Notes: generated by a model from the sequence alone, not told the origin. 64,000 nt of DNA from an uncultured bacterium (GCA_964654025.1 CAZZIF010000002.1:883-64882), one strand, 5' to 3'; counted from the first letter of the stretch, positions 3,267-63,968 are shown. Numbers and translations: made by a program.

Positions 3267-3410
3267 TACGCCGGCATGCCGCTGCATGCGGCTGCGTACG
3301 CCGGCATGCGGCTGCGTGCAGCGGCGTGTGGCGGTCTACGGCGGCGTGCAGCGGCGTGTGGTGGCCTACGGCGGTGTGTGGCGGTCTACGGCGGCGTGCA
3401 GCGGCGTGCG
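3267..3410. repeat. Tandem repeat array, ~30-bp unit (GTACGCCGGCATGCSGCTGCRTGCRGCKGC-like) x ~5 with internal 15-bp sub-repeat
   Basis: Direct reading of 3267-3410, immediately 5' of the ALDH start on the minus strand. Confidence 0.8.
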
Positions 3411-3751
3411 GCCAAGCTGCTAACGGCCGGAGGTGGTGTAGATTGAGCGGCGGGTTGCCGATGCATGGCGTAGGTGGTTCGCTCGAGCATCAGAAGGAGC
3501 TTTCCAGGCGAGTGATCGGCATTGCGGAGCCAGGTGCGCAGGGCGTACCCTTGTTCTCTTGCGCTGAAGTTCGAGCGATGCTCGGACACAGCGAGCGATG
3601 GAGCCGGCTTCCCGGGCGAGCGGTTCGGGCGACGCTGTCAGGATGGACGAAGATGGACAAAGATGGACGATGATCGATGATGATCGACGGAGCTTGGATG
3701 TGCCCAGGGAACCTGAGCTGAGCATAGAGAGCCCTATTAAGGAGTAGGTCG

Positions 3752-4705
3752 ATGGGATTCTTAGATCAGTTGTTTGGCAGAAAGAGTTCAGAGCCAGCGA
3801 AGCGGCCCATCATTCGGCCGACGGGTGTGGGGGCGCCGCATCCGAAGCCGCCGTTCGATGAACTCAATAACTACATCATCGTGATCCTCGATAGCTGCCG
3901 GTACGACTCCTTCATGGCAGCCAAGCCGAAGGTCATCACGAAGCTCGGCGAGGTCGAGCAACGCTGGAGCTACGCCTCCTGGACCGGTCCGTCCCACTAC
4001 AATCTGCTCATGGGATTGCTGCCGCATACCAGTCCGGCACACGTCTACGCATCCGACTACTACAAGGAAGATTTCTTGCGATTCAATGAGCGTCTTGGGG
4101 CCGCGGGAATCGAGTTCAGCAGCTTCGTGCCGCATCTGTTCTTTCCAACCTACCTGCGCAACACACTGGGCTACTTCACCCACGCGAAGGTGTCGCTCCC
4201 GGTGCTCAATCCCAAGACCGCTATCAACAAGGACTTCGACTCCTTCAAGTTGATGGACAAGCACAACGACATGAACGCGATGCTCGATGAGTTGACCTTC
4301 TCCACCGAGCGGCCGTCGTTCTACCTCCTGAATGTGGGTGAGACGCACTATCCATATGCCCGGCCCACCGAACCGAAGAACGAGTGGCCCCGCCTGAGTG
4401 GTGTTCACGGCGTCTTCAAGCATCTGGACGACGCGGTGATCGACGGTCAGCTCAAAGAAGACCAGAAGACCGAGCCGTTCTTCGATCAGGAGAAGCTCGA
4501 TATCCTTCGCGGCCGTCAGATCGATACGGTGCAGTACCTCGAAAGCGTTTTCGAGCGCCTCTACGACATGGTGCCGAAGAACACCTACATCACCGTGACC
4601 GCCGACCACGGCGAACTCTTTGGTGAGAAAGGCTACTTCGGACACGGCCCGATCCAGCACGACAAGGTGTTCGAGGTCCCGTTCTTGGAAGGGAAGATCC
4701 GTTAG
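3752..4705 (+). CDS. Alkaline-phosphatase-superfamily metalloenzyme (sulfatase/phosphodiesterase-like), cytoplasmic, function unknown
   Basis: AAGGAG RBS before the ATG at 3752. IIVILDSCRYDSF (metal-ligand Asp/Ser region) and TVTADHGELFGEKGYFGHG (AP-superfamily DHG motif). GC content is visibly lower (~55%) than neighbours. No signal peptide. Confidence 0.5.
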   Translation: MGFLDQLFGRKSSEPAKRPIIRPTGVGAPHPKPPFDELNNYIIVILDSCRYDSFMAAKPKVITKLGEVEQRWSYASWTGPSHYNLLMGLLPHTSPAHVYASDYYKEDFLRFNERLGAAGIEFSSFVPHLFFPTYLRNTLGYFTHAKVSLPVLNPKTAINKDFDSFKLMDKHNDMNAMLDELTFSTERPSFYLLNVGETHYPYARPTEPKNEWPRLSGVHGVFKHLDDAVIDGQLKEDQKTEPFFDQEKLDILRGRQIDTVQYLESVFERLYDMVPKNTYITVTADHGELFGEKGYFGHGPIQHDKVFEVPFLEGKIR

Positions 4706-4766
4706 AGAAGACAACGACTAGAGAAAGCACCGACTAGAGACGGCAACGGCTAGAGAAAGCAACGAC
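4703..4766. repeat. 16-bp tandem repeat x4 (TAGAGAARSCAMCGRC); first unit contains the TAG stop of the upstream gene
   Basis: Direct reading; units at 4703, 4719, 4735, 4751. Confidence 0.85.
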
Positions 4767-4844
4767 CTGTCTCACCAGGGGTCCCGGGATCTTACTGGAC
4801 CATCCTGCCTCACCAGCTCAGTTTGGCGATCGCACGGGATTGTC

Positions 4845-6785
4845 CTATCGCACCACGGCGACCTTGGTCGTGGCTGATCGTCCCTCCGCGTTCCGGGCCA
4901 GTATCAGGTAGGTGCCGGCGGGAACGTCGTGAGCTTCGATCCGGAAAGCAGTGTCCGTGCCGGCTCGCGGCTGACAATGTGTCGAGCGCAACAACCTTCC
5001 CGACGCATCCAGCAGCATGAGCTGGACCCGGCCAGCAGAGTGCGATGCCCCGGACTCCAGAACGCCTTGGATCCAGTTCGTGGAAGGGCCGCAGGATGCG
5101 GCGCGAAGCGTGAAGGTGGCGGGGTCAGCAACGGATACCTGTTCAGAGCGGATCCCCGGAGCCGAACTCATCGAACTGCCGGTACCCTCGATGAGCGTGA
5201 CCCACTGATCGACCAGCCCTCCCCAGGTAGAGGCGTTCCAGTACTCGATGGAGCCGCACGGCCAGCGGACCTCGACTTCCGCTACCTCCTCACGGGAACC
5301 GAGGCCGAAGTGCACCGGATGCATGTTCATCGTTTGGTCCGACGAGGTCGTTTCGACCTGCCGGATGCCCGACCGCCCATCGGGATAGATGAGACTGACC
5401 TGTGCGCCGGCCGCCGTCAGACCGCAGCTCACACCATCACCGCGCAACTCGACCACCATCCAGTGGTGCTCGCTGCTCAACTCGTCCAGATCGTTGCGGA
5501 ACAGATGCTTGCCGTTGTATTCGCCCGACCCGCCGGCGAAGAAGAGGTCGACATCGCCGTCGCGGTCGTAGTCGGCGACCCCAAACCCCTCGATGTTGCG
5601 AAACACCGTGCTCGTGGTGAGACCGTATTCGTCATTGGCGTAGTGGAAACGCCCGTAGTTCTCGGGTCCCTCATTGATATAGAGCCAGGCCGGTCCCCCG
5701 TACCAGGTGGAGCCGAAGAGATCCAGGTCGCCGTCGTTGTCGATATCCGCCCAAAGGGTGTTATGCCATTCCATCCGATTGCCCCAGATGCCGGTCTGGC
5801 CTTCGTCGAAGCCGTTGATCAACTCGACGAATGTGCCATCCCCCTCATTCCGGTAGATCGCGAGCCAGCCGTGGATGTTCGCGACGGCGAGATCGAAGTC
5901 GCCATCGTTGTCAAAATCTCCCCAGGACGCGCCGCTTGCCAAGCCGATCCCGTACTCGCCGTGAGGCTCGATGGCCACGCCCGCCGCGGTGGCAACGTCG
6001 GTGAAGTGACCGGTGCCATCGTTCTGCCAAAGAAAGTTCTCCCAGGACGGATCGGCCCAGTCGACACCGTAGCAAGGCACGAAGATATCCATATCGAAGT
6101 CCTGGTCGTAGTCACAGGCAACGACGGATCGTGAATGACGCTCACCCGCCGGCTCGAGCAACTCGGGAATGGTCCCGCCCGTCACATCCGTGAATACCTC
6201 GCCGCCGTCGGCCTCGAAGAGATGGTCATGGGTGCGTCCGTATTCCGGCGCCCAGTTGCCGAAGGTGGCTTGGTAGACCTCGCAGTAGGCATCACCGTCG
6301 GTATCGACAAAGACCGGCATCGTCGCGCGGGTGTATTCGGGCGCGGTGTAGTAGGCATGATGGGAGAAGGTGAAGTCGGGCGCGCCCGAGTTCTCGAAGT
6401 AGTAGGAGGTGCGTGGGTTGCCTGGTGTGGAATGGGGATCGGCTCCCTGGATACAATCCAGATCGCCATCGTTGTCCGCGTCCGCCCACGACGCACGCAG
6501 AAAATTCGTACCCTCCGGTGGTAGGAGCCCATTGCCCGTCGTGAGTGAGAAGGTCCCGTCGCCGTTGTTCTTGAAAAGAACATCGCGGCTGATGTGAATG
6601 TCAGGCCAACCGTCGTTGTTGTAGTCCGGCCACGAAACACCGTTCGATCCGCCGATGTGCGCGGGCTGCATGCCGAGCGCTTCTTCGGTGACCTCCGTGA
6701 AGATCGCCTTCGCGGTCGTGGTCAGCAAGAAGGTCGCCAGGCAACCCAGGCAGATGGTTGACAGGGAACGAGACATGCATTTCAT
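4845..6785 (-). CDS. Secreted FG-GAP/VCBS-repeat protein with ASPIC/UnbV domain and C-terminal T9SS (Por) sorting domain
   Basis: ATG at 6785 with a GGAGAGG RBS; signal peptide MKCMSRSLSTICLGCLATFLLTTTAKA. Multiple DxDxDGxxD FG-GAP motifs and EVRWPCGSIEYW (UnbV/ASPIC). C-terminal ~80 aa end in GTYLILARNAEGRSATTKVAVVR, typical of a T9SS CTD. Confidence 0.7.
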   Translation of the reverse strand: MKCMSRSLSTICLGCLATFLLTTTAKAIFTEVTEEALGMQPAHIGGSNGVSWPDYNNDGWPDIHISRDVLFKNNGDGTFSLTTGNGLLPPEGTNFLRASWADADNDGDLDCIQGADPHSTPGNPRTSYYFENSGAPDFTFSHHAYYTAPEYTRATMPVFVDTDGDAYCEVYQATFGNWAPEYGRTHDHLFEADGGEVFTDVTGGTIPELLEPAGERHSRSVVACDYDQDFDMDIFVPCYGVDWADPSWENFLWQNDGTGHFTDVATAAGVAIEPHGEYGIGLASGASWGDFDNDGDFDLAVANIHGWLAIYRNEGDGTFVELINGFDEGQTGIWGNRMEWHNTLWADIDNDGDLDLFGSTWYGGPAWLYINEGPENYGRFHYANDEYGLTTSTVFRNIEGFGVADYDRDGDVDLFFAGGSGEYNGKHLFRNDLDELSSEHHWMVVELRGDGVSCGLTAAGAQVSLIYPDGRSGIRQVETTSSDQTMNMHPVHFGLGSREEVAEVEVRWPCGSIEYWNASTWGGLVDQWVTLIEGTGSSMSSAPGIRSEQVSVADPATFTLRAASCGPSTNWIQGVLESGASHSAGRVQLMLLDASGRLLRSTHCQPRAGTDTAFRIEAHDVPAGTYLILARNAEGRSATTKVAVVR

Positions 6786-6953
6786 GATGTCCTCTCCTCG
6801 GAAGCTGTCCGGTCGCCATTTCCCACGATGATGACAGTGGGATTCTAGCACAGATGACTACCAGGGTGGAGAGGAGAGCCGGTCGCCTGCAGCGGCAGAG
6901 CGGTTGTGCTGCTGCCGATGCCGGTACGGTCCGCTACTGGCTCCTGCCGCCGG

Positions 6954-7127
6954 TTACGGACCCCGGGATCGCGTTGCCAAGCCGGCGATGAGCGAGACAA
7001 TGAAGACCACCAGGAAGATGAAGAAGAGGACCTTGGCAATGGCCGCCGCGCCTGCTGCAATGCCGGTGAAGCCGAACAGGGCGGCGATCAGAGCAACGAT
7101 GAAGAAGATCAAAGCCCAACGTAGCAT
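6954..7127 (-). CDS. UPF0391/DUF1328 family small membrane protein (57 aa)
   Basis: Not in the ORF track (<60 aa). Minus-strand translation [50 protein letters not shown]... matches the conserved UPF0391 pattern. AAAGGAG RBS upstream of the ATG at 7127. Confidence 0.6.
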
Positions 7128-7225
7128 CCTAGGCTCCTTTCGTGATCACGCAGTTTTTCCAGCCCAGATGTGTTCACGCGTCGCGATCTCAAAACCGGCG
7201 CTCGGCCAGGGGGGGGGAAGAGCCG

Positions 7226-7666
7226 TCATGGCTGGACGGCTTTCTCCAGATTCGTGATGCCGGATTCGATCTTGGCCATTTCCTCGAACAGCTGCGTCCG
7301 GAGCGGGTCGCGGCTCTCCACTGTCACCCTCCGGAGTTGGGCATAGCGGCTCTCGCTCAGTTTGTACTGACGCTCCAGTTCATCGAGCATCTCCCGCCAC
7401 GCATCCGCCTGAGGAAGGTCGCCCTGCTGCCGGATCTGGTCCCTCAGCTCCTCGATCCGCTCCGCCATTCGGTCGAGTTGATCCTGGAGATCCTGCACTT
7501 GCACGGGATGGACGGAGGGGCTCGATGGGTCATCCGAAGGTTCGTCTACTTGTCCCGCGGACTGGCCGGCGGTGTCGTTGTCGTCACCGCCGCATCCCAC
7601 GCCGAGGTGGGCGAACACAACGACCGCCAGGGCGTGAAGCACAACAACCATGTGAGCCTTGTTCAT
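7226..7666 (-). CDS. Lipoprotein, coiled-coil, unknown function
   Basis: Signal peptide plus lipobox (HLGVGCGG). The C-terminal half is charged and helical. GAGGTG RBS. Confidence 0.5.
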   Translation of the reverse strand: MNKAHMVVVLHALAVVVFAHLGVGCGGDDNDTAGQSAGQVDEPSDDPSSPSVHPVQVQDLQDQLDRMAERIEELRDQIRQQGDLPQADAWREMLDELERQYKLSESRYAQLRRVTVESRDPLRTQLFEEMAKIESGITNLEKAVQP

Positions 7667-7935
7667 AACAGCACCTCTAGCAGTAAAAACGCATGCACCT
7701 GTAACACCTGAAGTACCTGAGGCATTTGAAGCACCAGAAGCATTCGCGGTTCACCCCGATCACGGGGCTTCCTCGGTGTCCCGGGTGCGACTGTGCCTAC
7801 GGGGCCCGATGCGCCGAAGACACGCTAGGACCGTAGTGGCCGGCGCGAGCGCGCGGCATAGGGGATGTCCCGGTGTGGTCGTGGGGACCACATCGCTGCC
7901 AGGTCTGGGGCGGAGCGTTCGCTATCGTCAGCATT

Positions 7936-8024
7936 CGGAGCCAGCCGGAGCCATCTGGGACCATCCGGAGCCATCCGGAGTCATCCGGAGTCATCCGGAG
8001 TCATTCAGAGTCATTCAGAGTACG
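7936..8024. repeat. 10-bp tandem repeat (GGAGYCATYC) x ~9
   Basis: Direct reading. Overlaps the 3' end/stop of the NlpC/P60 gene on the minus strand. Confidence 0.85.
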
Positions 8025-8518
8025 CGGCGAGCCATCCAGAAGACCTCGCGCCAATAGGGAGTGTCGATGTTGGAGATCGTGACCCCGCGTTGCCCGCTCG
8101 AATGCACGAACTCTCGTTGACCGAGGTAGATGCCTACGTGGCGACTGCCCGAGCGCCGCTTGAAGAAGACCAGATCGCCGGGAAGCAGATCCGGTCGACT
8201 GATCTTCATGCCGACCTCCACCTGTGTCTTGGTCGTCCGGGGCAGACGGCGGCCGAAGTGGTCGGCGAATACGCGCACCACCAGACCGGAGCAATCGACG
8301 CCACCGCGGCTCATCCCGCCCAAGCGGTAGGCTGTGCCCAGCCAGGGGACGACCGCCTCGCGGAGTTTCTTCTCGACCGCGCTGGCAGTTGCGGCGACCG
8401 CCGGATCACTGGCGGGGTGGCGGGGGGGCGGTGCGCTGGGTCCACAGCCGTTCATCAACAGGCCTCCTGACAAGGTCAAGGCCAGTATGAAGAGAAGTCG
8501 ACTTCGGGCTCGATTCAT
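8015..8518 (-). CDS. NlpC/P60 (C40) family cell-wall peptidase lipoprotein
   Basis: Lipoprotein signal (LLMNGCG). Conserved GTAYRLGG...GVDCSGLV catalytic-Cys motif and downstream His. Confidence 0.75.
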   Translation of the reverse strand: MNRARSRLLFILALTLSGGLLMNGCGPSAPPPRHPASDPAVAATASAVEKKLREAVVPWLGTAYRLGGMSRGGVDCSGLVVRVFADHFGRRLPRTTKTQVEVGMKISRPDLLPGDLVFFKRRSGSRHVGIYLGQREFVHSSGQRGVTISNIDTPYWREVFWMARRVL

Positions 8519-8591
8519 GGGCTTGATCCGGTTTCATCGTGGCCGCCGAGGCTACGCCACACGTGCTCTCTCCAATCCTAGTCCATTCGAC

Positions 8592-11500
8592 CTACCGGGG
8601 TATAGGGGGGTAGGGCGGCGCCTCGGGCATGGGCCTCGGGTCGTCTTCGATGAGCCTGCGCAGATGCTCGATCGCCCGATCCAGCTGCGCGTCTTCCCCT
8701 TCGAATGCCGCGTGGGGCAGGTTGTCCACCACGATGTCCGGTTCCACGCCGTGCCCCTCGATGAGCCACTCACCCTCCGGTCCATACACCCCGAACTCGG
8801 CCGCGGTGACAATCCCATGGTCGACCAGCCGGTTGCTGCTCGTGAGCCAAACCTCACCACCCCACGTGCGCGTCCCAATGATCTTGCCCAGCCCCAGGCG
8901 GCGGAACCCTTCGGCCAGCGCTTCGCCATCAGATTGCGTGTACTCGTCCACCAGGATCACCATGTGGCCCCGGAAGGCGTACTGCATGTTCGAATAGGGT
9001 TCTCCCGTTCGCGGCTGCCAGTACATCCATGCCCGCCGAAGCAGCTTCCCCAGGATCCAGCTGTCAATGTTGCCGCCGGTATTGTGGCGAGCATCGATGA
9101 TGAGCCCCTGGCGGTTGAAGACCGGGTAGAACTCCCTCACCCAGTCGCCCATGTCCTGGCGGCCCATCGAGCGCAGGTGGACATAGCCGATCGTTCCCTC
9201 ACCAGCCTCCTCTACCCTCTCGCGACGCGTCAGCTCCCACTCGTCGTAGCGCAAGTCCCATTCCGAGCGCACCGGAATGGGCTCGACAATGACGTCACGG
9301 ATCGTGCGATCGCCGGGAGAGCGAACCTGGAGCCGCACGTCGCGCCCGGCCTGGTTGTGAAGTAGAGCCCCCACATGAGGCGCCTCGAGCGTCGGGACAC
9401 CATTGAGCGTGAGGATCACATCGCCTTCCGCAATGCCCACGCCCGGACGCGTGAGCGGTCCCCGTTCATCGGGCCGGTCGGGATCGGTTCGGTAGATGCG
9501 CTCGACGCGATAGCCTCCCTCCTGGGGCGAGCGGACCAAGACGGCGCCGAGCGAGCCCAACGGTGGTGGGTTGTCCGCTTCGCGATGATCGCCACCGTAG
9601 ACCCACGTGTGCAGCGTGCCGAGTTCGCTGGCCATCGCGGCCTGCAGATCACTCAGCTCTTCCCGGGTCGTGACCCGGGCGACCAAGGGCAGGTACTTCT
9701 CGAGAGTGGCGTTCCAGTCGAGACCGCGCATTTCCGGGTCCCAGAAGTAGTCGCGTTGGAGGCGCCAGGACTCGATGAACATCTGCTTCCACAGCTCGTG
9801 CGGCCGGATTGTAAAGGTGAGATCGGTCAAGTCCACACGATCCGCGGAGCGATCGGGCTCTTGGCCGGCCTGCGCATCCGTGACGAAGAACGCATCGTCC
9901 TCCCGGATCATGATTCGCTTGCCATCGCTCGACAAAACGTAGCCGGTGGCAGCCGGGGAGAGCACGGTCTTGGCCGTGTCCGGGTCTCCGATCTCCATGG
10001 TGACGAGCGCGCCCTTACCCCAGGAAGGCCCAGCATGTCTCATCCAGAAGAGGCGGGAGCCGGCGACGGAGAGCCGGGAGTAGTTGCCGGGCGGTACGGG
10101 CACCTTCTGCAGATGGGCCTCGATTGCCTCGAGTTCGATCGCGATCGGCCCCGGGGCGGCGTCGGGTTTGGCGTTGGCTCTAGCGGTGCGTTCCTCCGAC
10201 CCGCTACCCGACCCACTACGCATCCGGCTGCCCATCCGGCTGCCCGTTCCGTTGCGCGCTCCGTTGCCCGTTCCACAGCCTGCTCCGCCGTCCGTTCCGC
10301 CGTCTGCCGTGCCGGCCGCGCTGCCGACGGACAGCTCGTCCGGTTCCCGGAACGGTGAGCGAAGATCGGATTGGAGTGGCAGCATGTAGATCTCGGTTTG
10401 ATCGGGGAAGTAAGGGTCCGGCTGGCGGCTTCCCCACGGGCCGTAGACCTCCGAGACGAAATGCCGGTTCGATAAGAAGTAGATCCACTCACCCTTGGGG
10501 TCGAACCGGCCGCTCCAGCTGTCGTAGCGATCCGTCGTGATGGGCCGGGTCTCGCCGCGCTCCACGCTGTAGAGGTGGATCTGGCCAAACGAAGTCTCGG
10601 CGTTCTTCGAGTAGACGAGCCAGCGGCTATCCGGCGACCAGCTCGCCTCTTCCAGACCAGCGTGGGGAGCGCTGTCGATCAGGGTGTTCTCGCCGGTCTC
10701 GAGATCGTGAAGCCAGATCTGTCGGTCGTGATCGGTATAGGCGAGGTAGCGTCCGTCTGGTGAGACGGTGCCGCGCAGGCGCAGGACTTCCCCATCATCG
10801 GTCAACTGCTCCGGTTCTTCCATGCCATCGGCCGCATAGCGCCACCATTCCACCTCGCCGCTGGCGTCCGAGAGCGTGAAAATGTGCCGGCCATCGGGAC
10901 CGAACATGGCCTGCCGGCAGCGGATGTCCTTGCGCCGGGTCACCTCGACGAGGCGGCCCGGTCCGGTGGGAACGACGAACACCTGGCCATAGATCGTGAG
11001 CACCAGACGGTCTCCATCCGGCGAAATGGCGGCATGGGACAGGTGCTCGAGCGGCTCTTCCACCCAGCGTTCGCGTTTCTGATCGAAGTCACTGCTGAGC
11101 ACGATCGGAAGCCGGCGCGTGGCATCCTCGGCGATGTCGTACAGGTACAGGTCCGCTCCGAGCTGGTAGGCAATGCGACCGCTGGAGAGCGAAGGGGACT
11201 TGACCTCCCAGCCGTCATGATGGGTGTGTTGGCGGAGATCGCGCCCGTCTGGAAGCATCGACCAGATGTTCAGGGTAGCGTCCCGATCGGAGACGAAATA
11301 GACCCGGCCCTCCCAGCACATGGGGTCGCGACTCGTTCCCGGGTAGGAAGCGGTGAGCGCAAGCGCTTCTTCATCGCCCAAGCGATAGCGCCACAGATTC
11401 TGCGCGGTCCCGCCGCGGTAGTACTTCGTGTGGCTGCCGTGAAAGGCGAGTCGTGTGAAGAAGAGCACCTCCCCATCGGGGTCGAAGCAGCCTTGGGCGG

Positions 11501-12059
11501 CCTGCGCCAGCGGAATCCGTTCCACATCATGGGATGCCAGGTCCAGGAGGGCGAGCTGGGTGTTCGGAAGACACGAGAACTTGCGTGTGCTGTAGAGCAG
11601 GCGCCCGTCGGGGGCCCAGCCCTGTACTCTGGCTCGTTCGCCCTCGAAGGTCCGCCGAACCGGCAGGCCCCCCGCGAGCGGCATGGTGTAGACCTCCGAG
11701 GCGCCCTCATAGCGTCCAGTGAAGGCCAAGGTGCTGCCATCGGGCGAGATTGCCGGATGGGATTCCTCTTCCAGGTGAGTGGTCATACGCCGGGCGGGCG
11801 CCGAAGAGTCGATCTGCCACTGCCACAGGTCACCCTCGGCAGCGAAGACCAAGGTGTCGCCGTACAGGGCCGGGTAGCGGTAATACCCGGTGGGGGCGGC
11901 CATCGGGACGGTGGCGGTGCCACAGACGGCCAGAAGAAGGACCACGGCGACAACCGTCATGGCCGGCCAAGAGCCAGCCGGCGACCATGGGCGTTCCGCG
12001 CGGCATCGTAACTGGTATCCGTGGCGCCAGGGTGCTCGATCTTGGCGGGTAGCGGACAT
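8592..12059 (-). CDS. Tricorn protease homolog (beta-propellers + PDZ + S41 peptidase domain), with an internal Gly/Ser/Thr-rich insertion
   Basis: 1155 aa. N-terminus YRYPALYGDTLVFAAEGDLWQ and HPAISPDGSTLAF (tricorn beta-propeller). C-terminal RHNTGGNID and GHGVEPD (S41). AAGGAG RBS 6 nt before the ATG at 12059. Low-complexity insert GSAAGTADGGTDGGAGCGTGNGARNGTGSRMGSRMRSGSGSGS maps to ~10180-10330. Confidence 0.8.
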   Translation of the reverse strand: MSATRQDRAPWRHGYQLRCRAERPWSPAGSWPAMTVVAVVLLLAVCGTATVPMAAPTGYYRYPALYGDTLVFAAEGDLWQWQIDSSAPARRMTTHLEEESHPAISPDGSTLAFTGRYEGASEVYTMPLAGGLPVRRTFEGERARVQGWAPDGRLLYSTRKFSCLPNTQLALLDLASHDVERIPLAQAAQGCFDPDGEVLFFTRLAFHGSHTKYYRGGTAQNLWRYRLGDEEALALTASYPGTSRDPMCWEGRVYFVSDRDATLNIWSMLPDGRDLRQHTHHDGWEVKSPSLSSGRIAYQLGADLYLYDIAEDATRRLPIVLSSDFDQKRERWVEEPLEHLSHAAISPDGDRLVLTIYGQVFVVPTGPGRLVEVTRRKDIRCRQAMFGPDGRHIFTLSDASGEVEWWRYAADGMEEPEQLTDDGEVLRLRGTVSPDGRYLAYTDHDRQIWLHDLETGENTLIDSAPHAGLEEASWSPDSRWLVYSKNAETSFGQIHLYSVERGETRPITTDRYDSWSGRFDPKGEWIYFLSNRHFVSEVYGPWGSRQPDPYFPDQTEIYMLPLQSDLRSPFREPDELSVGSAAGTADGGTDGGAGCGTGNGARNGTGSRMGSRMRSGSGSGSEERTARANAKPDAAPGPIAIELEAIEAHLQKVPVPPGNYSRLSVAGSRLFWMRHAGPSWGKGALVTMEIGDPDTAKTVLSPAATGYVLSSDGKRIMIREDDAFFVTDAQAGQEPDRSADRVDLTDLTFTIRPHELWKQMFIESWRLQRDYFWDPEMRGLDWNATLEKYLPLVARVTTREELSDLQAAMASELGTLHTWVYGGDHREADNPPPLGSLGAVLVRSPQEGGYRVERIYRTDPDRPDERGPLTRPGVGIAEGDVILTLNGVPTLEAPHVGALLHNQAGRDVRLQVRSPGDRTIRDVIVEPIPVRSEWDLRYDEWELTRRERVEEAGEGTIGYVHLRSMGRQDMGDWVREFYPVFNRQGLIIDARHNTGGNIDSWILGKLLRRAWMYWQPRTGEPYSNMQYAFRGHMVILVDEYTQSDGEALAEGFRRLGLGKIIGTRTWGGEVWLTSSNRLVDHGIVTAAEFGVYGPEGEWLIEGHGVEPDIVVDNLPHAAFEGEDAQLDRAIEHLRRLIEDDPRPMPEAPPYPPIPR

Positions 12060-12132
12060 GGACAGCTCCTTCTTGGGATCATGGAAGGTTCGGGTCGCCG
12101 GGGATTCTAACGCAGGACCGTAGAGCGGTCAT

Positions 12133-12210
12133 CTGCAGAGAGGCAGCCGGCGGAGAGGCCACCCGCAGTGAGGCAGCCCGCGGTGAGTCCCCCGCGGGGA
12201 GGCCCTCCGC
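12133..12210. repeat. Degenerate ~15-bp tandem repeat (GWGAGGCMSCCSGCG) x ~5 in divergent intergenic region
   Basis: Direct reading between the tricorn start (12059, -) and the MATE start (12350, +). Confidence 0.6.
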
Positions 12211-12349
12211 CGACGCCGGGCGGCTGCCCACCGGTCGTAGCCATGCCCCCCCGCGCATCCGGCTAGCCGTTGCCGGTACGGATTGCTATAGTGTGCCGGC
12301 TTTGCTTGATACGCACAGGCAATCCTCCAGGCAGAAGGAAGAACACCCC

Positions 12350-13735
12350 ATGGCCCGCGTCGCTGATCGCGTCGCTCCTCGCACCGCCAAAGCGTACGAT
12401 CACACGGAAGGTTCGATCATCGGATCGATTCTGCGTATGGGTGTTCCCTCGATGATCGGGTTCGCGTTGGGGAACATCTATGATCTGGTCGACATGTACT
12501 GGCTTTCGCGACTCGGGCCCGGACCGGTGGCGGCGATCACGATCCTGAGCCCACTCCTGTGGGTGGTTCATTCGGCCAACATGATCGTGGGCGCCGGATC
12601 GGTGGCGATCATCTCCCGCCGCTACGGCGAGAAGAACCCGTTGCAAACGGCGCTGGCCATCCGCGAGACGATCCTGCTCAAGTGGATCGCGGCGATCGCG
12701 TTCGGTCTGCTGGGCTATGCCAGCGCACCACTGGTGATGCGCTGGCTGGGCGCCGAAGGCAGTGTGCTCGACCAGGCGGTCATCTATGGACGGATCATCT
12801 TCCTGGGATTGGGCTTCAATTTCGCAACCTACTCGGTGTTCACCGCCATGCGCGGGATCGCCAATCCCAACCTCGCCATGGGGCTGATGATATCGTTGAA
12901 CGTGCTCAACATGCTGCTCGATCCGGTTCTCATCTTCGGGTGGTGGATCTTCCCCGCCCTGGGAGTGGCTGGCGCCGCGTGGGCTTCGGTCATCTCCTAC
13001 GCGCTCTCCTTTTCGGCGGGCATGCTGCTGCTCTCGTCGGGCCGGACGAACGTCCGGCTGAGCCAGACGAACCGCCGGCCCATTCAGTGGGCCATCATGG
13101 GCAGCATTCTGAAGATCGGGACCCCTTCGGCCATTGGATCAGTGTCCTTCTCTCTGGCACGCACGGTTGTGATGCCCCTGGTAGCCCTCTTCGGGACGGG
13201 CGTCCTGGCAGCCTACGGTGTGGTGACCCGCGTATCTGCCTTCGGCATCATGCTGCTGGTGGGCATTGGGCTCGGTCTGTCCGCTCTGATCGGCCACAAC
13301 CTGGGGGCCGGCAAACGTGAGCGCGCCGAGCGAACCGCCCACCAGGCGATTCTTCTCTCCGTCGGCATCATGATTGGAATGGGGCTGCTCTGTTTCGTCG
13401 GCGCCGAGTTCATCATGCGCCGTTTCTTCGATGAACCCGAGATCGTGGCCCACGGGGTCTCCTTCCTGCGCATTCTGGCCGTCGGCTTTCCCTTCCTGGG
13501 CATTCACTTGGCGGTGGAGAATGTCTACAGCGGGGTCGGGGAGAATCGACCCGCGATGACGGTGAACATTCTTCATTCCTGGGTGCTCGAGGTCCCGGTG
13601 ATCTATCTCTTCGTCAAGGTGTTCGAGTGGGGGCCGGACTCGATCTGGTGGGCCTTCACGGGAGCATCGATTGTCTCGGCGGCAGGCTACTACCTCTATT
13701 TCCGGCGGGGCCGCTGGCTCGATGTCAAGGTGTAG
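12350..13735 (+). CDS. MATE family efflux transporter
   Basis: 12 predicted TM helices. MATE N-terminal motif ILRMGVPSMIGFALGNIYDLVDMYWLSRLG. GAAGGAAG upstream of the ATG at 12350 (the ORF-track start at 12293 has no RBS). Confidence 0.85.
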   Translation: MARVADRVAPRTAKAYDHTEGSIIGSILRMGVPSMIGFALGNIYDLVDMYWLSRLGPGPVAAITILSPLLWVVHSANMIVGAGSVAIISRRYGEKNPLQTALAIRETILLKWIAAIAFGLLGYASAPLVMRWLGAEGSVLDQAVIYGRIIFLGLGFNFATYSVFTAMRGIANPNLAMGLMISLNVLNMLLDPVLIFGWWIFPALGVAGAAWASVISYALSFSAGMLLLSSGRTNVRLSQTNRRPIQWAIMGSILKIGTPSAIGSVSFSLARTVVMPLVALFGTGVLAAYGVVTRVSAFGIMLLVGIGLGLSALIGHNLGAGKRERAERTAHQAILLSVGIMIGMGLLCFVGAEFIMRRFFDEPEIVAHGVSFLRILAVGFPFLGIHLAVENVYSGVGENRPAMTVNILHSWVLEVPVIYLFVKVFEWGPDSIWWAFTGASIVSAAGYYLYFRRGRWLDVKV

Positions 13736-54605: not shown

Positions 54606-54644
54606 ACCATACCCTTTGGGTGTTGTTTGCGAACTGGATGACGA

Positions 54645-54941
54645 TCAGAGCCTTCCCACGAGGATGCCCTTCTTGGGGCCCAGGCGGCGGATCAGAATCG
54701 TTCGCGCGGCGATGAACCCAGCCAATGACGCCAGGACCGCCGGCCAGCCCCAGTGGATCGCCAGCAGCGAAATCACATAGATCGCAACCGAGAAACGCAC
54801 GAGCAGGGCCAGGACCGTCAGTGCGGTCGGCCAACGGGTGTGAGGCAGGCGGTGCGTCATCCACCACAGGACGCTGAAGTAGAATGCGCCCAGGGCTAGC
54901 CCCGCGATCAGCGACAGAATGACTTGGCCGACTACAGACAT
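54645..54941 (-). CDS. atpR: N-ATPase accessory membrane protein AtpR
   Basis: 98 aa, 3 TM helices with a conserved Arg. Positioned between atpQ and atpB as in N-ATPase operons. Confidence 0.55.
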   Translation of the reverse strand: MSVVGQVILSLIAGLALGAFYFSVLWWMTHRLPHTRWPTALTVLALLVRFSVAIYVISLLAIHWGWPAVLASLAGFIAARTILIRRLGPKKGILVGRL

Positions 54942-55020
54942 GATGGTCTGCGTACTCCCTTCTCCGAAATGCGTTCGGCGCGGCCGCCCTCGCCGACCCG
55001 GTGCGATCTGCGGACTCGCG

Positions 55021-55423
55021 CTACCGTGATTCCTGACGGTTCTGGATGCGTTCGGCTTCGCCTCCGCCTTCCGATGGGGGCGGTCCCTGCCCGGTTGCGG
55101 GCGAATCGTCCCGATGGATCTGTTCTCGTTCGCGGCGCACCCAGAACCATGCGTTTAGGCAGCCCAGGGTCACGCCGATGATCATGAACGTCAGCGTCCA
55201 GGAAACGGAGGTGCCTGAATGGCCTTGTTGGGCATCGAGCCAGAGTCCTACCACGATGCCGATCACCGTAGGGATGGCCACGGACCAGCCGACGATGCCG
55301 AAGGTCCCCAACCCGAACCACAGGCTGTGCTCCTTCTGCTTTGCGGCGCGCATTTTGCGCCGACGTTTCCGCTCGGCGGCCTGGCGGAAGCGCTTGGCCC
55401 CGGGCTCCATTCGGGGAGCGGGC

Positions 55424-55431
<8 letters not shown>
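55021..55431 (-). CDS. atpQ: N-ATPase accessory membrane protein AtpQ (AtpZ/AtpI-like)
   Basis: 136 aa. Basic N-terminus then 2-3 TM helices. Position after atpC is characteristic of atpDCQRBEFAG. Confidence 0.5.
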
Positions 55432-59194
<3,763 letters not shown>

Positions 59195-59277
59195 GACCGG
59201 CACTCGGGGCGGAGAGGTCCCCGAAGAAGGACAGGGAGCGAAGGATGGCGGTAGATGCGGATGGCTGAGGAGGAATC

Positions 59278-61332
59278 ATGCCCGGGCAGAAGACGACCAA
59301 GGGGGAGCGTGTAAATGAGATGACGAAGAAGGAGGCCCAAAAGCGAGCCAAAGAGCTTCGCGAGGAGGTCTCCCATCATGATTTCCTCTACTACGTCAAG
59401 AATGATCCGGAGATCTCCGATGCCGCCTACGACCGGCTCAAGGGCGAGTTGGAGAAGATCGAAGAACGATTCCCGGATCTGGTGACTGCGGACAGCCCAA
59501 TGCAGCGAACCGGGGGGGAACCGCAAGAGCAGTTCGGGACCGTCACGCACGAGACACCGATGTTGAGCTTGCAGGCGGTTCCGGACCGGGAGGGGTTCGA
59601 GTCCTTCTACGAGCGCACTTGTGACGATCTGGGCGAGGAGAAGGTGACGCTGGTCGGGGAGCCGAAGTACGACGGCGTGAGCGTGGAGCTGATCTACGAA
59701 AACGGCCAACTCGAAACGGGATCCACGCGTGGAGATGGTCGGGAAGGGGAGGACATCACCCCGAACGTCAAGACGATTCCGCAGGTCTTGTTGAATCTGA
59801 GGCAACCCAAGAACGCTTCCCGCCCACGACACCTCGTCGTCCGGGGCGAAGTGTACATGGAGAAGGAGGCGTTCCGCGACTTCAACGACCGACAGGAGGA
59901 GGCCGGAAAGAAGACATTTGCCAATCCACGAAATGCAGCGGCCGGAAGCCTGAGGCAGCTGGATCCCAAGATCACTTCGGAACGTCCCCTGCAGGTCTAC
60001 TTCTGGGAGATTGCCGCCTCTTCGAGTTCCCGGCCGGCGACCCATTGGGAATGTCTCGACCTGCTCGCTCGCCTCGGACTGCGAACCAACGAGTACGCCC
60101 AGCGATGTGAAGATCAGCAAGAAGCCATCGACTGGCAGGCGGACATGGCGAACCGGCGCCAGGGGCTGCCCTTCGAGATCGATGGCTGCGTTTTCAAGGT
60201 CGACCGGCTGAAGGCCTACGACTCCCTTGGTACGCGAGCCGCCAATCCCCGCTGGGCGGTGGCGTGGAAGTTCCCGCCCGCGCGGGAGTCCAGCCGCATC
60301 AAGGAGATCGAGGTCCAGGTGGGCCGAACCGGAGCGCTGACACCGGTGGCGGTTCTCGAGCCGATCTCGATTGGCGGCGTGAAGGTGAGTCATGTCTCGT
60401 TGCACAATCAGGATGAGATCGATCGGCTGGATGTCGCCGAGGGCGACACCGTGTTGGTCGAACGGGCTGGGGATGTCATTCCCCACGTCGTCAAGGTGAC
60501 GAAACGCAAGGGCGGGAAACGCAGTACGTATCGGTTGCCCAAGAAGTGCCCGGTTTGCCATGGCGACGTCGTCAGGCCCGAAGGCGATGCGATTGCCCGG
60601 TGCACCAATCCCTCGTGCCCTGCGCGGATCGAGCAGAGCCTGTTGCATTTCGCTTCCTCCGAAGCACTCGACATCGATGGTCTGGGCGAGAAGGTTGTGC
60701 ATCAACTCCTGGAAGCCGGATTGGTGTCGGATCTGAGCGAGCTATTCAGTCTGAAGAGCAAGGACCTCGAGAAGCTCGAACGAATGGGACCCAAACGGGC
60801 GGAGAATGTGATTCAGTCGATCGAGGAGGCCCGGACGAAGGCCACCTTGCCTCGGTTGATCTACGGTCTGGGCATCCCGCATGTGGGACGGGCGTTCGCC
60901 GGCGATCTGGCGGCTGCCTTCGGGTCACTCGAGGCGCTGGCGGAGGCCTCGGAAGAAGACCTGCTCGAGCAGGAAGGCATGGGACCGACCAGGGCGCAGG
61001 CCATCGCGGGTTGGTTCGATAACAAACAGAATCACAAACTCGTTCACAAGCTGAAGAAACAGGGCCTCGATCCCCGGTTCTCCCAGAAGAAGGGCGCCCT
61101 CGCCGGGAAGGTCGTCGTCTTCACCGGCGGCCTCGATGCGATGTCCCGGGATGAGGCGAAAGAGGCGGTACTCGAACAAGGGGGCAAGGCGACCGGCAGT
61201 GTATCAGGGAACACCGATCTGCTCGTGGCCGGCGCCGATCCGGGCGACACCAAGATGGAGAAGGCCCGCGACGAGGATGTCAAGGTCATCGGTGAGGGAG
61301 AGTTCCTCGATCTGATCGGAGAGGAGCGGTAG
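59278..61332 (+). CDS. ligA: NAD+-dependent DNA ligase
   Basis: GAGGAGG RBS 5 nt before the ATG at 59278. KYDGVSVELIYENG adenylation Lys. OB fold, Zn finger (CPVCHGDV...C..PSCPA), HhH and C-terminal BRCT. Confidence 0.9.
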   Translation: MPGQKTTKGERVNEMTKKEAQKRAKELREEVSHHDFLYYVKNDPEISDAAYDRLKGELEKIEERFPDLVTADSPMQRTGGEPQEQFGTVTHETPMLSLQAVPDREGFESFYERTCDDLGEEKVTLVGEPKYDGVSVELIYENGQLETGSTRGDGREGEDITPNVKTIPQVLLNLRQPKNASRPRHLVVRGEVYMEKEAFRDFNDRQEEAGKKTFANPRNAAAGSLRQLDPKITSERPLQVYFWEIAASSSSRPATHWECLDLLARLGLRTNEYAQRCEDQQEAIDWQADMANRRQGLPFEIDGCVFKVDRLKAYDSLGTRAANPRWAVAWKFPPARESSRIKEIEVQVGRTGALTPVAVLEPISIGGVKVSHVSLHNQDEIDRLDVAEGDTVLVERAGDVIPHVVKVTKRKGGKRSTYRLPKKCPVCHGDVVRPEGDAIARCTNPSCPARIEQSLLHFASSEALDIDGLGEKVVHQLLEAGLVSDLSELFSLKSKDLEKLERMGPKRAENVIQSIEEARTKATLPRLIYGLGIPHVGRAFAGDLAAAFGSLEALAEASEEDLLEQEGMGPTRAQAIAGWFDNKQNHKLVHKLKKQGLDPRFSQKKGALAGKVVVFTGGLDAMSRDEAKEAVLEQGGKATGSVSGNTDLLVAGADPGDTKMEKARDEDVKVIGEGEFLDLIGEER

Positions 61333-61441: not shown

Positions 61442-62569
61442 ATGAAGACAAATGCTCTGCAGGAGCTTCGCAAGCTGGGCCAGGGTATCTGGCTGGATTA
61501 TTGGCACCGCGGGATGCTGGAGGATGGTGAGTTTCAGCGGCTGCTGACCGAAGATGGCATCACCGGCGTGACGACAAACGCGAGCTTGTTTCAGCAGGCG
61601 TTGGCCGAAGGCGAGGTCTATGGAGCTGCCATGGACGGCCTGGCGGCTCTGGATCTGCCGGCCGAGGAGATCTACCGCCGGCTGGTGGTCGAAGACGCGC
61701 AAGCGGCAGCCGACCTTCTGGAACCGATCCACGCGCAAAGCGATGGACGGGATGGCTATGTGTGCCTGGCGGTGAATCCGCAGCTGACACATGACAGCGA
61801 CGCGACGACCGCGGATGCTCTCGATCTGTGGACGCGTGTGAAACGGCCGAATCTCATGATCAAGGTTCCCGCGACCGATGCCGGCCTGCTCGCGATTCGT
61901 CATCTCACGGCCGAAGGAGTGAATACGAACGCAACCCTGATTTTCGATCCCGATCGCTACGAACAAGCCGCCGAAGCGTACGTGAGCGGCTTGCAGGCCC
62001 GCTTGCAGCGGAGCGAGTCGATCCGGGGAATCACCGGCGCCGCCAGCGTGTTGGTTGGCCGGATCGACCTGCGAATCGATGCCATGATACGTGAAGGGAT
62101 CGGACAGAACCCCGATCGGACTGAGCTGGCCGGCAAGCTTGAAGGGAGTGTCGGCATCGCCGTTGCCCGGCAGAGTCTCTTGTTTCACAAGCGCATCTTC
62201 GACGAGGAGCCCTTCCGCCGGCCGGCCAGTGCGGGTGCCACCCCCCAGCGCTTGGTGTGGGCCAGCACGGGGCCCAAGTCTGCCCGGTACGACGAGCACA
62301 AGTATGTCGATGCGCTGGTGGGGGCCGACACGATCGTGGCGATGCACCCGGCCACACTCGATTCCTATCGCGAGCGGGGCAAGCCCGCGCGTCGCCTGGA
62401 GGAGACCCTTGACCAGGCGCGTTATTGCCTCGATCAGATGCCGGCGGCCGACATCGACTTGTCGGCCGTCGGCCGGAGTCTGGAGAACGAGGGCATCCGC
62501 GCGTTTGCGACGGCGCGCCAGGTCACCTTGCAGCAGATCGAGGCCCGGCGGGAATCGGCCGCCCGGTGA
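61442..62569 (+). CDS. tal: Transaldolase (long actinobacterial/cyanobacterial-type)
   Basis: GIWLDYWHRGML...GVTTNASLF and the Schiff-base Lys in NLMIKVPAT. Confidence 0.8.
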   Translation: MKTNALQELRKLGQGIWLDYWHRGMLEDGEFQRLLTEDGITGVTTNASLFQQALAEGEVYGAAMDGLAALDLPAEEIYRRLVVEDAQAAADLLEPIHAQSDGRDGYVCLAVNPQLTHDSDATTADALDLWTRVKRPNLMIKVPATDAGLLAIRHLTAEGVNTNATLIFDPDRYEQAAEAYVSGLQARLQRSESIRGITGAASVLVGRIDLRIDAMIREGIGQNPDRTELAGKLEGSVGIAVARQSLLFHKRIFDEEPFRRPASAGATPQRLVWASTGPKSARYDEHKYVDALVGADTIVAMHPATLDSYRERGKPARRLEETLDQARYCLDQMPAADIDLSAVGRSLENEGIRAFATARQVTLQQIEARRESAAR

Positions 62570-62666
62570 TGTTCGCGCCCGTCATCTCGCGCGGCCTGCG
62601 TGGTGTGTGGCTGGCATGATCGGGTGGCCGTCCCGCTGCTGGTCGGGTTGTGGATCTCTGCCGGAC

Positions 62667-63218
62667 CTAGGAGTCGTTCATGAAGAGCTGGTCTCCTCCC
62701 TCGGCCTTGGCATGACAGGGCATGCACCCGGTGTCCGAGTCCTTTCCGACCAGCCCCGCGAGCGGCACGCCCTGCTCGTTCGTGTCGAGTGTGCCGTCGG
62801 CCTGATACTTGACATAGAACCAGTCGGGGCCCTGCAGATTGTAATGTTCGTCGCGCTGAACCATTACGGTGACGGCCATGAGGAATTCGTCGGGGCGGTT
62901 CGACACGGTCTGGATCGAGGCGTTCTCGCCGCCGAAGTTGTCCTTCACGATGACGTGATAAGCGTCATCACCAACGTGGACGTAGTTGTAGTACATACGA
63001 AGAAACTGCCCGTGAGGCGAGGTCCCGGGATAGACGTCCGAGGCGAGCGGCCAATCCTGATAGCCCTGCATGGCCTCCCACAAGTTCTCGGCGAAGCTGA
63101 TGCTCTTGGCGTCGCCATAAGCCTCCTCTTCCTGCGTGCAAGCGACGCCAATCGTGATTGCCAACGCAATCACCAGCAGCACGCTCGGACAGTAGACTTT
63201 TCGAAGTCTCGCTTGCAT
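62667..63218 (-). CDS. Putative cytochrome P460 / cytochrome c'-beta family protein (single CxxCH haem c)
   Basis: AAGGAGG RBS 6 nt before the ATG at 63218. Signal or lipoprotein-like N-terminus. CMPCH haem-binding motif close to the C-terminus and ~180-aa size are typical of P460. Confidence 0.45.
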   Translation of the reverse strand: MQARLRKVYCPSVLLVIALAITIGVACTQEEEAYGDAKSISFAENLWEAMQGYQDWPLASDVYPGTSPHGQFLRMYYNYVHVGDDAYHVIVKDNFGGENASIQTVSNRPDEFLMAVTVMVQRDEHYNLQGPDWFYVKYQADGTLDTNEQGVPLAGLVGKDSDTGCMPCHAKAEGGDQLFMNDS

Positions 63219-63884
63219 ACCAACCTCCTTCTGGCACTGGGGCGTGTGGCGGTGGGGACTCAAGGTGGATGGCTTCGTCATGTGCGCGCCCATCACCCAG
63301 ATCCACCGCACGGCCTTTGTCGTCCTCTTACTTTGCAGAGGTTTTCCGCACGGGCAATCAGGGTATGTCCCCGTCGAGGGTTCGGGAAGAATTTGGGTGG
63401 GGGAACTCCCGAGGCAGGGAACCGCAGGGATCCCGATTGTGCCCGGCCGGCTCCTCCCGCACGATGCGCCTGTCATGGACGCCACAAGCCATGGCGCATC
63501 GGATCCTCGAGAGGGAAACGGGAGTTCCTCCGTGACGCACACAGGGCGCCTGCCCTGGCCCCGACTCACGTTTCCTGAGGAAGCGGCGCAATGCCGCAAC
63601 GCGTGCCCGGCCGGTTCGATAAGAGATCGCACCCGAATGCTCTCTCGCTGACCACCCGACCGGCCGGGCCCCGCCCCCCTTCCTCAGACGACGGGCTCAG
63701 TCCGCCTCCAGGTCCTTCTCCGCTGCCCGGTCCGGAAAGAGGTGGATTCGTTCCAGGTCGAGGTTCAAGCCGACCGGGACCTCCCCGGGATCACGGTCCG
63801 CCAGCACCAGCAAGCCCTGTCTACCGATATCCACGTGCAGGAGAAAGCCAGTTCCCAAGTTCTCCACAACGCGGACCTTCCCCC

Positions 63885-63968
63885 GAATCTTGCCTCGCTC
63901 GGGCGGAATCTTGCCTCGCTCGGGCGGAATCTCGGCTCGCTCGGGCGGAATCTCGCCTCGCTCGGGCG
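63885..63968. repeat. 21-bp tandem repeat (GAATCTYGSCTCGCTCGGGCG) x4
   Basis: Direct reading near the window end. Confidence 0.85.

Follow-up and report, generated by a model that had tools for sequence, protein, structure and literature searches.

What are the short tandem-repeat arrays that crowd a 64,000-nucleotide (nt) stretch of DNA from an uncultured bacterium (GCA_964654025.1, CAZZIF010000002.1:883-64882; hereafter the window), and why are there so many of them? A first-pass annotation of this sequence had listed 11 arrays, each with its own unit, and had proposed that they might replace terminators or insulators, act as phase-variation tracts, or serve as protein- or RNA-binding iterons. 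The analysis presented here leads to a different reading, which we regard as probable: the arrays are locally born minisatellites, or variable-number tandem repeat (VNTR) tracts, produced by a lineage-specific regime of duplication and slippage and confined by selection to unconstrained DNA.

Tandem repeats were detected with Tandem Repeats Finder (TRF) under a single fixed criterion throughout (period of at least 7 nt, at least 2.5 copies, score of at least 50). Every one of the 11 arrays was recovered, with coordinates that differed by a few bases only: 3258/3272-3412 (a compound 10/20/30-nt array), 4703-4766 (16 nt x 4, plus strand), 7932-8040 (10 nt x ~9, CATCCGGAGY), 12135-12203 (15 nt x 4.5), 14938-15031 (23 nt x 4), 18263-18364 (13 nt x ~8, minus strand), 20577-20661 (20 nt x 4, plus strand), 37050-37106 (14 nt x 4.1), 49294-49377 (12 nt x 7, minus strand), 52630-52708 (12 nt x 6.6, minus strand) and 63885-63968 (21 nt x 4, minus strand). 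In addition, eight further arrays of like kind were found at 3642-3689 (10 nt x 4.8, unit GATGGACGAA), 18585-18642 (15 nt x 2.9 plus 12 nt x 1.9), 29179-29240 (14 nt x 4.4, plus strand), 30554-30610 (9/10 nt, C-rich), 33433-33481 (10 nt x 4.9, unit AAAGGGCGCC), 36056-36108 (12 nt x 4.4, plus strand), 45185-45234 (18 nt x 2.8, minus strand) and 49616-49654 (13 nt x 3). The total is 19 arrays in 64 kb, or 2.97 per 10 kb; the earlier estimate of about one array per 6 kb was too low, the true density being one per 3.4 kb. Units measure about 9-23 nt, some with compound 20/30-nt readings, and are present in 2.8-7.3 copies, the highest copy number (about 15) belonging to the 10-nt reading of the array at 3258. 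Copies are contiguous and imperfect, with a match of 70-100%. Arrays are referred to below by their first coordinate.

This density was compared with several baselines, amounting to about 2.1 Mb of other prokaryotic DNA. In 50 dinucleotide-preserving shuffles of the window, the mean was 0.04 arrays per shuffle and the maximum was 1. Eighty unrelated genome loci (1.5 Mb) yielded 0.18 arrays per 10 kb, with 0.07 in the non-Acidobacteriota subset and 0.44 in the subset labelled Acidobacteriota. A further 69 metagenome loci (0.59 Mb), found with the protein of the gene at 3752-4705 (the 3752 gene) as query and mostly from unrelated lineages, gave 0.51 per 10 kb; their arrays were few and their periods often multiples of 3. 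The window thus stands 16- to 40-fold above other genomes and about 75-fold above shuffles, and the initial impression of a density far above expectation reflects a large, real enrichment against shuffles, genome loci and metagenome loci alike. As a separate observation, Acidobacteriota loci of the Terriglobales type (including L064, L036, L079 and 19 more) carried about six times as many arrays of 8-25 nt as the other sampled bacteria, and single Acidobacteriota-labelled loci reached up to about 2 arrays per 10 kb, with AT-rich units; the phenomenon may occur in this group in attenuated form.

The position of the arrays was evaluated on a gene map built from open reading frames (ORFs) and matches to Pfam and NCBIfam, corrected by gene calls on the contigs of relatives and by homologue lengths, on which a few starts are uncertain. 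Non-coding DNA makes up about 12% of the window, yet it holds 1235 of the 1314 array bases (about 94%). Conversely, arrays account for about 16% of all non-coding bases in the window, and 16 of the roughly 36 spacers of at least 28 nt contain at least one. All types of spacer are represented. Among divergent spacers, that between the aldehyde dehydrogenase (Aldedh) start and the 3752 gene holds the arrays at 3258 and 3642, the latter 63 nt upstream of the 3752 start, while the arrays at 12135 and 14938 lie in the Tricorn|MatE and NTP-transferase|apgM spacers, respectively. Two arrays share the HPF|treZ spacer: the one at 18263 ends about 10 nt upstream of the start of the HPF-cold-shock domain (CSD) gene (~18253, fixed by a 185-aa gene call on the relative L091), and the one at 18585 lies about 100 nt upstream of the treZ start (~18741). 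In the SpoIIAA-like|PpsA spacer, the array at 37050 precedes the likely PpsA start (37145, backed by the start of the NCBIfam model) by about 40 nt. The spacer between the HAD/trehalose-phosphatase gene and OsmC likewise contains two arrays, that at 49294 ending 10 nt upstream of the HAD/trehalose-phosphatase start (49283) and that at 49616 lying about 45 nt upstream of the likely OsmC start.

Convergent spacers carry the arrays at 4703 (3752|FG-GAP), 30554 (encapsulin|PfkB), 33433 (HK-RR|GAPDH, between the two stops) and 36056 (baeRF|hypothetical gene). The co-directional or intra-operon spacers with arrays are NlpC|146-aa gene (7932, upstream of the 146-aa gene, which was placed at 7226-7666 on the minus strand by gene calls on relatives' contigs), treZ|malQ-treY (20577, ending 15 nt before the MalQ-TreY ATG), ferredoxin|EncFtn (29179), GH65|ferredoxin (45185, between the GH65 stop and the start of a 67-aa ferredoxin gene at 44976-45179, likewise placed from relatives) and atpF|atpA in an N-type ATPase operon (52630). 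Small spacers can consist almost entirely of array: at 33433 the repeats take up 48 of 51 nt, and at 45185 they take up 50 of 67.

About half of the arrays lie 5' of genes or between divergent genes, and 10 touch or follow a stop codon. The stop-codon overlaps described in the first-pass annotation were confirmed: the TAG at 4703-4705 of the 3752 gene opens every 16-nt unit of its array, the treZ TAG (20595-20597) lies in unit 1 of the array at 20577, and the NlpC/P60 stop (8015-8017) falls within the degenerate end of the array at 7932. Further stops touching arrays are those of ferredoxin (the array at 29179 begins 1 nt past its TAG), HK-RR, GAPDH, the baeRF-family gene (its TAG is included in the array at 36056) and PfkB (overlapped by the array at 30554). 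The intergenic placement given in the same annotation held for nearly all arrays and failed for that at 63885, an in-frame coding repeat, (PPERG[EK]I)n, within a TOBE domain (Pfam TOBE_2, E = 1e-6); the ORF, which encodes an ABC-ATPase, extends beyond the window.

Periods of non-coding repeats are multiples of 3 in 10 of 23 cases, i.e. without bias, compared with 13 of 21 for the weak two-copy repeats inside genes, and both intragenic arrays that are clear keep the frame. At 10196-10245 (minus strand), the Tricorn protease gene contains two adjacent in-frame 12-nt x 2 repeats. The array at 52630 is also in frame with atpA and overlaps its start region; position 3 of the TIGR03324 model aligns to residue 34 of the atpA ORF, inside the array, and the units carry GAAGG and in-frame GTG codons. 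A perfect 13-nt x 2 duplication at 41160-41185 (plus strand), spanning the TGA of the second BON-domain gene, has the form of a two-copy proto-array.

No k-mer was shared among array units beyond the expectation from shuffles, and a repeat search linked only two arrays, both derived from ribosome-binding sites, to each other (75% over 24 nt). Palindromes were not in excess, with 3 units containing one of at least 6 bp as against 3.8 expected from shuffles; these three carry TCCGGA once and GGCGCC twice. The units are thus not a palindromic family of the repetitive extragenic palindromic (REP) type, as the first-pass annotation had already suggested. Its exclusion of clustered regularly interspaced short palindromic repeats (CRISPR) also stands, since the copies are contiguous and without spacers; in addition, no Cas families were found in Pfam scans of selected larger ORFs of the window, the other ORFs not having been scanned. 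Likewise, a dispersed repeat family such as mycobacterial interspersed repetitive units (MIRUs), short tandemly repeated repetitive (STRR) sequences or REP was considered and rejected, as no unit or consensus recurs across loci.

These results bear directly on the proposal that the arrays are iterons, i.e. repeated binding sites for DNA- or RNA-binding proteins, whether local regulators or a nucleoid protein that reads periodicity. Several periods (10-12 and 20-23 nt) are indeed close to one or two helical turns, and the three units with 6-bp palindromes could be read in the same sense. However, the lack of a common motif, with palindromes at or below expectation and every unit different, would require a separate protein for each array, periods are spread continuously from 9 to 38 nt, and the units diverge faster than the spacer around them, with an unrelated unit occupying the same spacer in a distant relative. 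No replication initiator was found among the Pfam hits of the window ORFs scanned, and units differ from array to array. Such a role is accordingly highly improbable.

Folding and signal predictions address another proposal, in which the arrays would stand in for intrinsic terminators or insulators, the genome being GC-rich and lacking U-tract terminators. Its premise is consistent with the data: in window positions 1-60000, 38 hairpin-plus-U terminators were found where about 33 were expected from shuffles, and sigma-70-type promoters were not enriched either (9 found, about 10 expected). As neither type of match exceeds shuffles, the lineage probably relies on signals other than sigma-70-type promoters and hairpin-plus-U terminators. 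The 10 arrays at or after stops, together with five of 19 whose folding is clearly better than that of shuffles (z < -2.5 for one strand or both), are what a terminator function would have in its favour. The remaining 14 fold no better than shuffles, and the mean folding z is only -0.9 (-0.03 for random window segments); the array at 33433 (z = -3.3) folds well because of its GGCGCC palindrome. Of the 38 terminator-like matches, only three, all weak, overlap with arrays (33433, 4703 and 52630). Furthermore, the C/G content of the transcribed strand is inconsistent with rut sites, upstream or divergent sites are as frequent as post-stop ones, and neither sequence nor copy number is conserved, the arrays diverging faster than anything else in the region. 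Taken together, these points make the terminator or insulator proposal very unlikely. No Rfam match was obtained across the whole window (gathering thresholds) or at 49250-49700 (E <= 1), and no tRNAs were found in the window.

The most informative evidence comes from relatives, which were found through protein searches and contig look-ups and represent independent assemblies (NCBI metagenome-assembled genomes (MAGs), Logan, ENA) from other samples. The closest are L085 (ENA ERZ10759785; ~97% nt identity over window 1-16164) and L094 and L095 (ENA; 97% nt, window ~41.5-50.1 kb), followed by L091 with L081 (GCA_964573295.1, a single 31.8-kb contig; ~91% nt over window 1-30587) and L093 (Logan assembly; 81% nt around the HAD/trehalose-phosphatase gene). 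More distant are L086, L087 and L097 (GCA_964417675.1 and a JGI sediment metagenome; 64-70% protein identity), L083 (GCA_964585945.1; 68% protein identity) and L089 (GCA_964612295.1; 62% protein identity). The taxonomic position is no more than hinted at by the best named hits, to Latescibacteria (68%) and to Gemmatimonadota and Eisenbacteria (53-56%); for TreZ, the homologues among the genome matches listed were 50-60% identical. Array density declines with growing distance from the window, from 5.2 per 10 kb in L091, 3.7 in L085, 3.0 in the window itself, 2.75 in L081 and 2.5 in L094 to 1.8 in both L086 and L093, 0.7 in L097 and 0 in L083 and L089.

For all 15 of the 19 window arrays that could be compared with the 91-97% relatives, the orthologous site is occupied by an array; those at 33433, 36056, 37050 and 52630, as well as the coding array at 63885, lie outside the compared contigs. 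Copy numbers among strains, whose comparison the first-pass annotation had suggested, do differ: length departs from that in the 91% relative in 10 of 10 comparable arrays and from that in the 97% relatives in 7 of 10 pairings, often by about whole units. The three pairings of equal length are 3642 and 14938 in L085 and 45185 in L094, where the last array is present. At 4703, for instance, about 2 units were found in L085, 4 in the window and about 8 in L091, and at 49294 the 7 units of the window compare with 6 in L095, 5 in L094 and one copy in L093. The array at 3258 lacks 20 nt in L085 and 28 nt in L091, that at 7932 is shorter by 10 nt (one unit) and 43 nt, respectively, and that at 12135 lacks 29 nt in L085, while in L091 its length exceeds that in the window by 16 nt. 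At 3642, L085 has the same length and L091 lacks 10 nt (one unit); at 14938, L085 has equal length with 9 substitutions and L091 lacks 25 nt (one unit). In L091, the arrays at 18263 and 18585 are shorter by 39 nt (three units) and 29 nt, respectively, while that at 20577 differs by a 6-nt and a 1-nt indel from L081/L091. The array at 29179 has one unit fewer in L081 and L082 (-15 nt in L081), and the orthologue of 30554 in L081 has the unit TGGTCCCCGC.

The variability in copy number between relatives is therefore real, and it is accompanied by elevated divergence. Relative to L085, mismatches amount to 9.1% in arrays, a figure that may partly reflect register shifts in the alignment, 3.6% in other spacer and 1.8% in coding sequence, and indel events per kb to 22.8, 2.6 and 1.5, respectively. 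The 91% relative shows the same ranking, with arrays above other spacer and other spacer above coding sequence. The arrays are the fastest-evolving and least conserved sequence of the compared region.

The same comparison bears on a technical explanation, namely that the arrays are assembly artefacts or translated repetitive extensions of proteins. The window is probably a metagenome-assembled contig, some arrays lie within long ORFs of high-GC sequence, and those at 52630 and 63885 are in frame with a gene. Against an artefact, independent assemblies from other samples have arrays at the same sites, and every array is shorter than about 160 nt. Against translation, homologue lengths and family models put starts and stops outside the arrays, except at 63885 and possibly 52630, and most periods are not multiples of 3. 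An explanation of this kind is scarcely credible.

Relatives also show where arrays come from. Unit 1 of the array at 20577 is the native end of treZ, its last six codons (DERETP) and TAG, and the TreZ protein tail is of normal length when compared with 45 homologues. In the leader of the HAD/trehalose-phosphatase gene, L093 has one copy, CCCATATGGAGAGG, with flanks that align well with the window, at the point where 5-7 tandem copies of the 12-nt CGCCCATGRAGG (GGAGG-N5-ATG repeated, on the minus strand) are found in the window lineage. The array at 49294, which has 7, 6 and 5 units among close relatives as against one copy in L093, was therefore born from local 5' untranslated region (UTR) sequence. 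Conversely, two sites that are single-copy in the window hold arrays in L091, one of 22 nt x 3.4 at the HPF-CSD stop and one of 16 nt x 5.9, and the L091 Tricorn gene has an in-frame 12-nt x 4.8 array at the site of the two 2-copy repeats of the window (10196-10245). Turnover is more complete at larger distances. In L086, the Tricorn|MatE spacer holds 9-nt and 23-nt arrays unrelated to the 15-nt unit of the window, between flanks conserved in both (ACTATAGCA towards MatE; CAGATGACCG and AAGGAGCTGTC-ATG towards Tricorn). The part of the L093 spacer that matches 49616 contains an unrelated 13-nt x 3 array, more distant relatives have other arrays or none, and no arrays were found in L089 and L083.

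Two side observations concern the HAD/trehalose-phosphatase leader. A non-coding stretch of about 170 nt upstream of the gene (window 49385-49545, minus strand; L093 2040-2200; L097 ~9790-9930) is well conserved in the 81% relative and patchily in the relative of 64% protein identity, has no Rfam match, and includes a CCCACGGGTGGGG hairpin and a GGAGGATCCG box; it may represent a promoter region or a cis-regulatory RNA. In addition, a short upstream ORF (uORF) at 49283-49310 on the minus strand (MKGVPS*; L093 2219-2242, MERAPP*) has an ATGA stop-start overlap with the trehalose-phosphatase start, and the 12-nt array at 49294 multiplies the Shine-Dalgarno (SD)-ATG of this uORF.

Considered jointly, these findings suggest a simple course of events. 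A piece of 10-30 nt of any local spacer sequence would be duplicated head to tail, and the piece could take in the last codons and stop of a gene, or a ribosome-binding site and start codon. The array would then gain or lose whole units, presumably by slipped-strand mispairing or unequal exchange, at a rate that may be unusually high in this lineage or with an unusual bias toward gain. Selection would purge arrays that disturb coding sequence or conserved regulatory elements, and arrays should therefore pile up in the unconstrained parts of spacers, ending at stop codons, SD/start sites or conserved leader elements, with only in-frame versions persisting inside genes. The arrays would have no common sequence-specific function, and effects on expression through spacing, extra SD-ATG copies or longer UTRs would be a by-product that is occasionally useful.

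Several points weigh against this reading. In coding sequence, two-copy in-frame duplications are no commoner than in other genomes and lie only about 2 standard deviations above codon shuffles. The same spacer holds arrays with different units across relatives of 70% protein identity, a recurrence that could indicate a hotspot or selection for having an array. SD-like motifs and start codons in units near real starts (49294 and 52630) would be compatible with a translational role. Moreover, the comparison spans no more than about 31 kb of the window for the 91% relative and about 24 kb for the 97% relatives. A genome-wide mutational burst of nascent duplications found no support, since a rise in duplication rate acting on the whole genome might be expected to show in coding sequence as well; the lineage factor may instead be the expansion of existing repeats, or a targeting of non-coding DNA. 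Deficiencies in flap processing or single-strand exonucleases raise such duplications in model organisms.

A more far-reaching version, which we consider unlikely, would place the cause in the replication or repair state of the lineage, making amplification of 10-30-nt pieces dominant in intergenic evolution and leaving the cell to use the result as genome-wide tunable spacers. Candidate causes would be weak flap or single-strand-exonuclease processing, or a slippage-prone polymerase, and multiplied SD-start modules and uORF leaders before stress genes would exemplify a contingency-like strategy in a free-living sediment bacterium.

The copy-number differences can also be interpreted as adaptive in themselves, with unit changes altering promoter spacing, UTR length or the number of SD-start modules and thus yielding heritable, reversible variation in the expression of stress genes (trehalose, HPF, encapsulin, OsmC, N-ATPase). 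Near-identical relatives do differ in copy number, many arrays lie 10-60 nt from start codons or in divergent promoter spacers, and a distant relative has arrays with different units in the same spacer. The array at 49294 multiplies GGAGG-N5-ATG, and its frame ends in the ATGA overlap with the real start, as in the single-copy uORF of L093. However, arrays are equally common in convergent spacers between two stops, where there is no promoter or ribosome-binding site (33433, 36056, 30554 and 4703), they have no common design, and they evolve fastest. The organism lives freely in sediment, whereas contingency loci are known from host-adapted settings. Adaptive tuning as the general explanation is hence doubtful, though it may apply to the subset next to starts, and the idea of phase-variation tracts stands only in the weak sense of variable copy number.

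The preferred reading, locally born minisatellites, places the arrays among known forms of unstable DNA. The closest counterparts are the bacterial VNTR or minisatellite loci used in multilocus VNTR analysis (MLVA) typing (Mycobacterium tuberculosis ETR/QUB, Yersinia pestis, Ralstonia, Xanthomonas), which are likewise mostly intergenic head-to-tail arrays of about 9 to tens of nt, with imperfect units within an array and whole-unit differences between close strains. The window arrays have every VNTR/minisatellite feature tested, namely tandem structure, copy-number polymorphism and a raised indel rate. Typed pathogens have tens of VNTR loci per genome; the window is far denser, with one array per 3.4 kb and nearly half of its spacers occupied, and it comes from an uncultured environmental lineage in which arrays turn over completely within the clade.

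The other systems resemble the window in part. MIRUs are a single dispersed sequence family with units of 40-100 nt. As in MIRUs, tandem units here lie in operons, over an upstream stop and near the next start (treZ|malQ-treY, ferredoxin|EncFtn, atpF|atpA); in contrast, each window array has an unrelated, locally derived unit of 10-23 nt. Contingency loci (Haemophilus, Neisseria, Campylobacter) share slippage-type changes in unit number near promoters or starts, but their units are of 1-8 nt, with on/off effects on frame or spacing in host-adapted bacteria, whereas the window units are of 10-30 nt and half of the arrays follow stops. CRISPR, REP or bacterial interspersed mosaic elements (BIME) and plasmid iterons are all short repeated non-coding DNA; unlike them, respectively, the window arrays have no spacers and no cas among the ORFs scanned, units that are neither palindromic nor a dispersed family, and no replication gene among the ORFs scanned, no origin context and no common unit.

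Published surveys provide a broader context. Tandem repeats are generally enriched in prokaryotic intergenic DNA, just outside genes (PMC12418385), intergenic structural variants (indels) of tandem repeats are frequent in Planctomycetota (PMC9426551), and in a few archaea, tandem repeats of 6-11 nt are over-represented in intergenic DNA (PMC4060949). The repeats reported in the first two, just outside starts and stops and rare in coding sequence, with indels ascribed to polymerase slippage, are of the same kind as those described here (PMC12418385; PMC9426551). Such surveys describe a trend across genomes or a phylum, whereas the window is an extreme local case in which birth, expansion and loss can be resolved spacer by spacer. 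What sets the window apart is the degree: arrays come at one per 3.4 kb, occupy nearly half of its spacers and make up about 16% of its non-coding bases. It is an extreme case of known unstable DNA and reveals no new regulatory system or element class. Recent tandem duplications, as opposed to old, slowly drifting sequence, thus account for a considerable part of the intergenic DNA in some environmental lineages (about 16% here). This has practical implications for MAG assembly, as contigs may break at such arrays, for the prediction of gene starts in high-GC genomes, because several long ORFs here pass through arrays, and for the interpretation of non-coding conservation, since islands of conservation between arrays, the trehalose-phosphatase leader among them, become conspicuous as likely functional sequence. 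Furthermore, the birth and death of bacterial minisatellites could be studied in this lineage as a natural system.

Several minor observations were made along the window and its relatives. The 31.8-kb relative contig ends about 70 nt past the array that follows the encapsulin gene (L081 10820-10928; cf. window 30554-30610); tandem arrays might contribute to short-read assembly breaks, or the contig end might be a coincidence. On the 3' side of the array at 4703 (window 4766-4870; L085 10689-10792; L091 17241-17336), the relatives have about 110 nt that are absent from the window, and a 38-nt array of 2.5-2.8 copies occurs there in L085 and L091, as compared with about 1.5 copies in the window. 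The neighbouring FG-GAP/ASPIC-UnbV gene (window 4845-6785, minus strand; L085 9149-10714; L091 15263-17203) encodes 521 aa in L085 and 646 aa in L091, and the alignment between the window and L085 over this gene is split into rearranged blocks; the broken alignment and the length difference suggest that internal repeat units were gained or lost.

With respect to gene content, window positions 17.7-50 kb resemble a desiccation, osmotic-stress or dormancy island. This region includes genes for an HPF-cold-shock domain fusion, treZ, a 1770-aa MalQ-TreY fusion, GH65 and the HAD-trehalose-phosphatase, as well as two six-BON-domain proteins, the ferredoxin-EncFtn-encapsulin set, a baeRF-family protein, OsmC, DJ-1/PfpI and desulfoferrodoxin. 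The N-type (alternate) F1F0 ATPase operon occupies 50189-57206 on the minus strand, with an alpha subunit above the TIGR03324 cut-off, a gene1/AtpI-like protein and a b subunit with an OSCP-like C-terminal part. Finally, the genes for PolX (PHP domain) and NAD-dependent DNA ligase are neighbouring and co-directional at 57461-61332, and in L086 the PolX gene adjoins Tricorn instead of DNA ligase.

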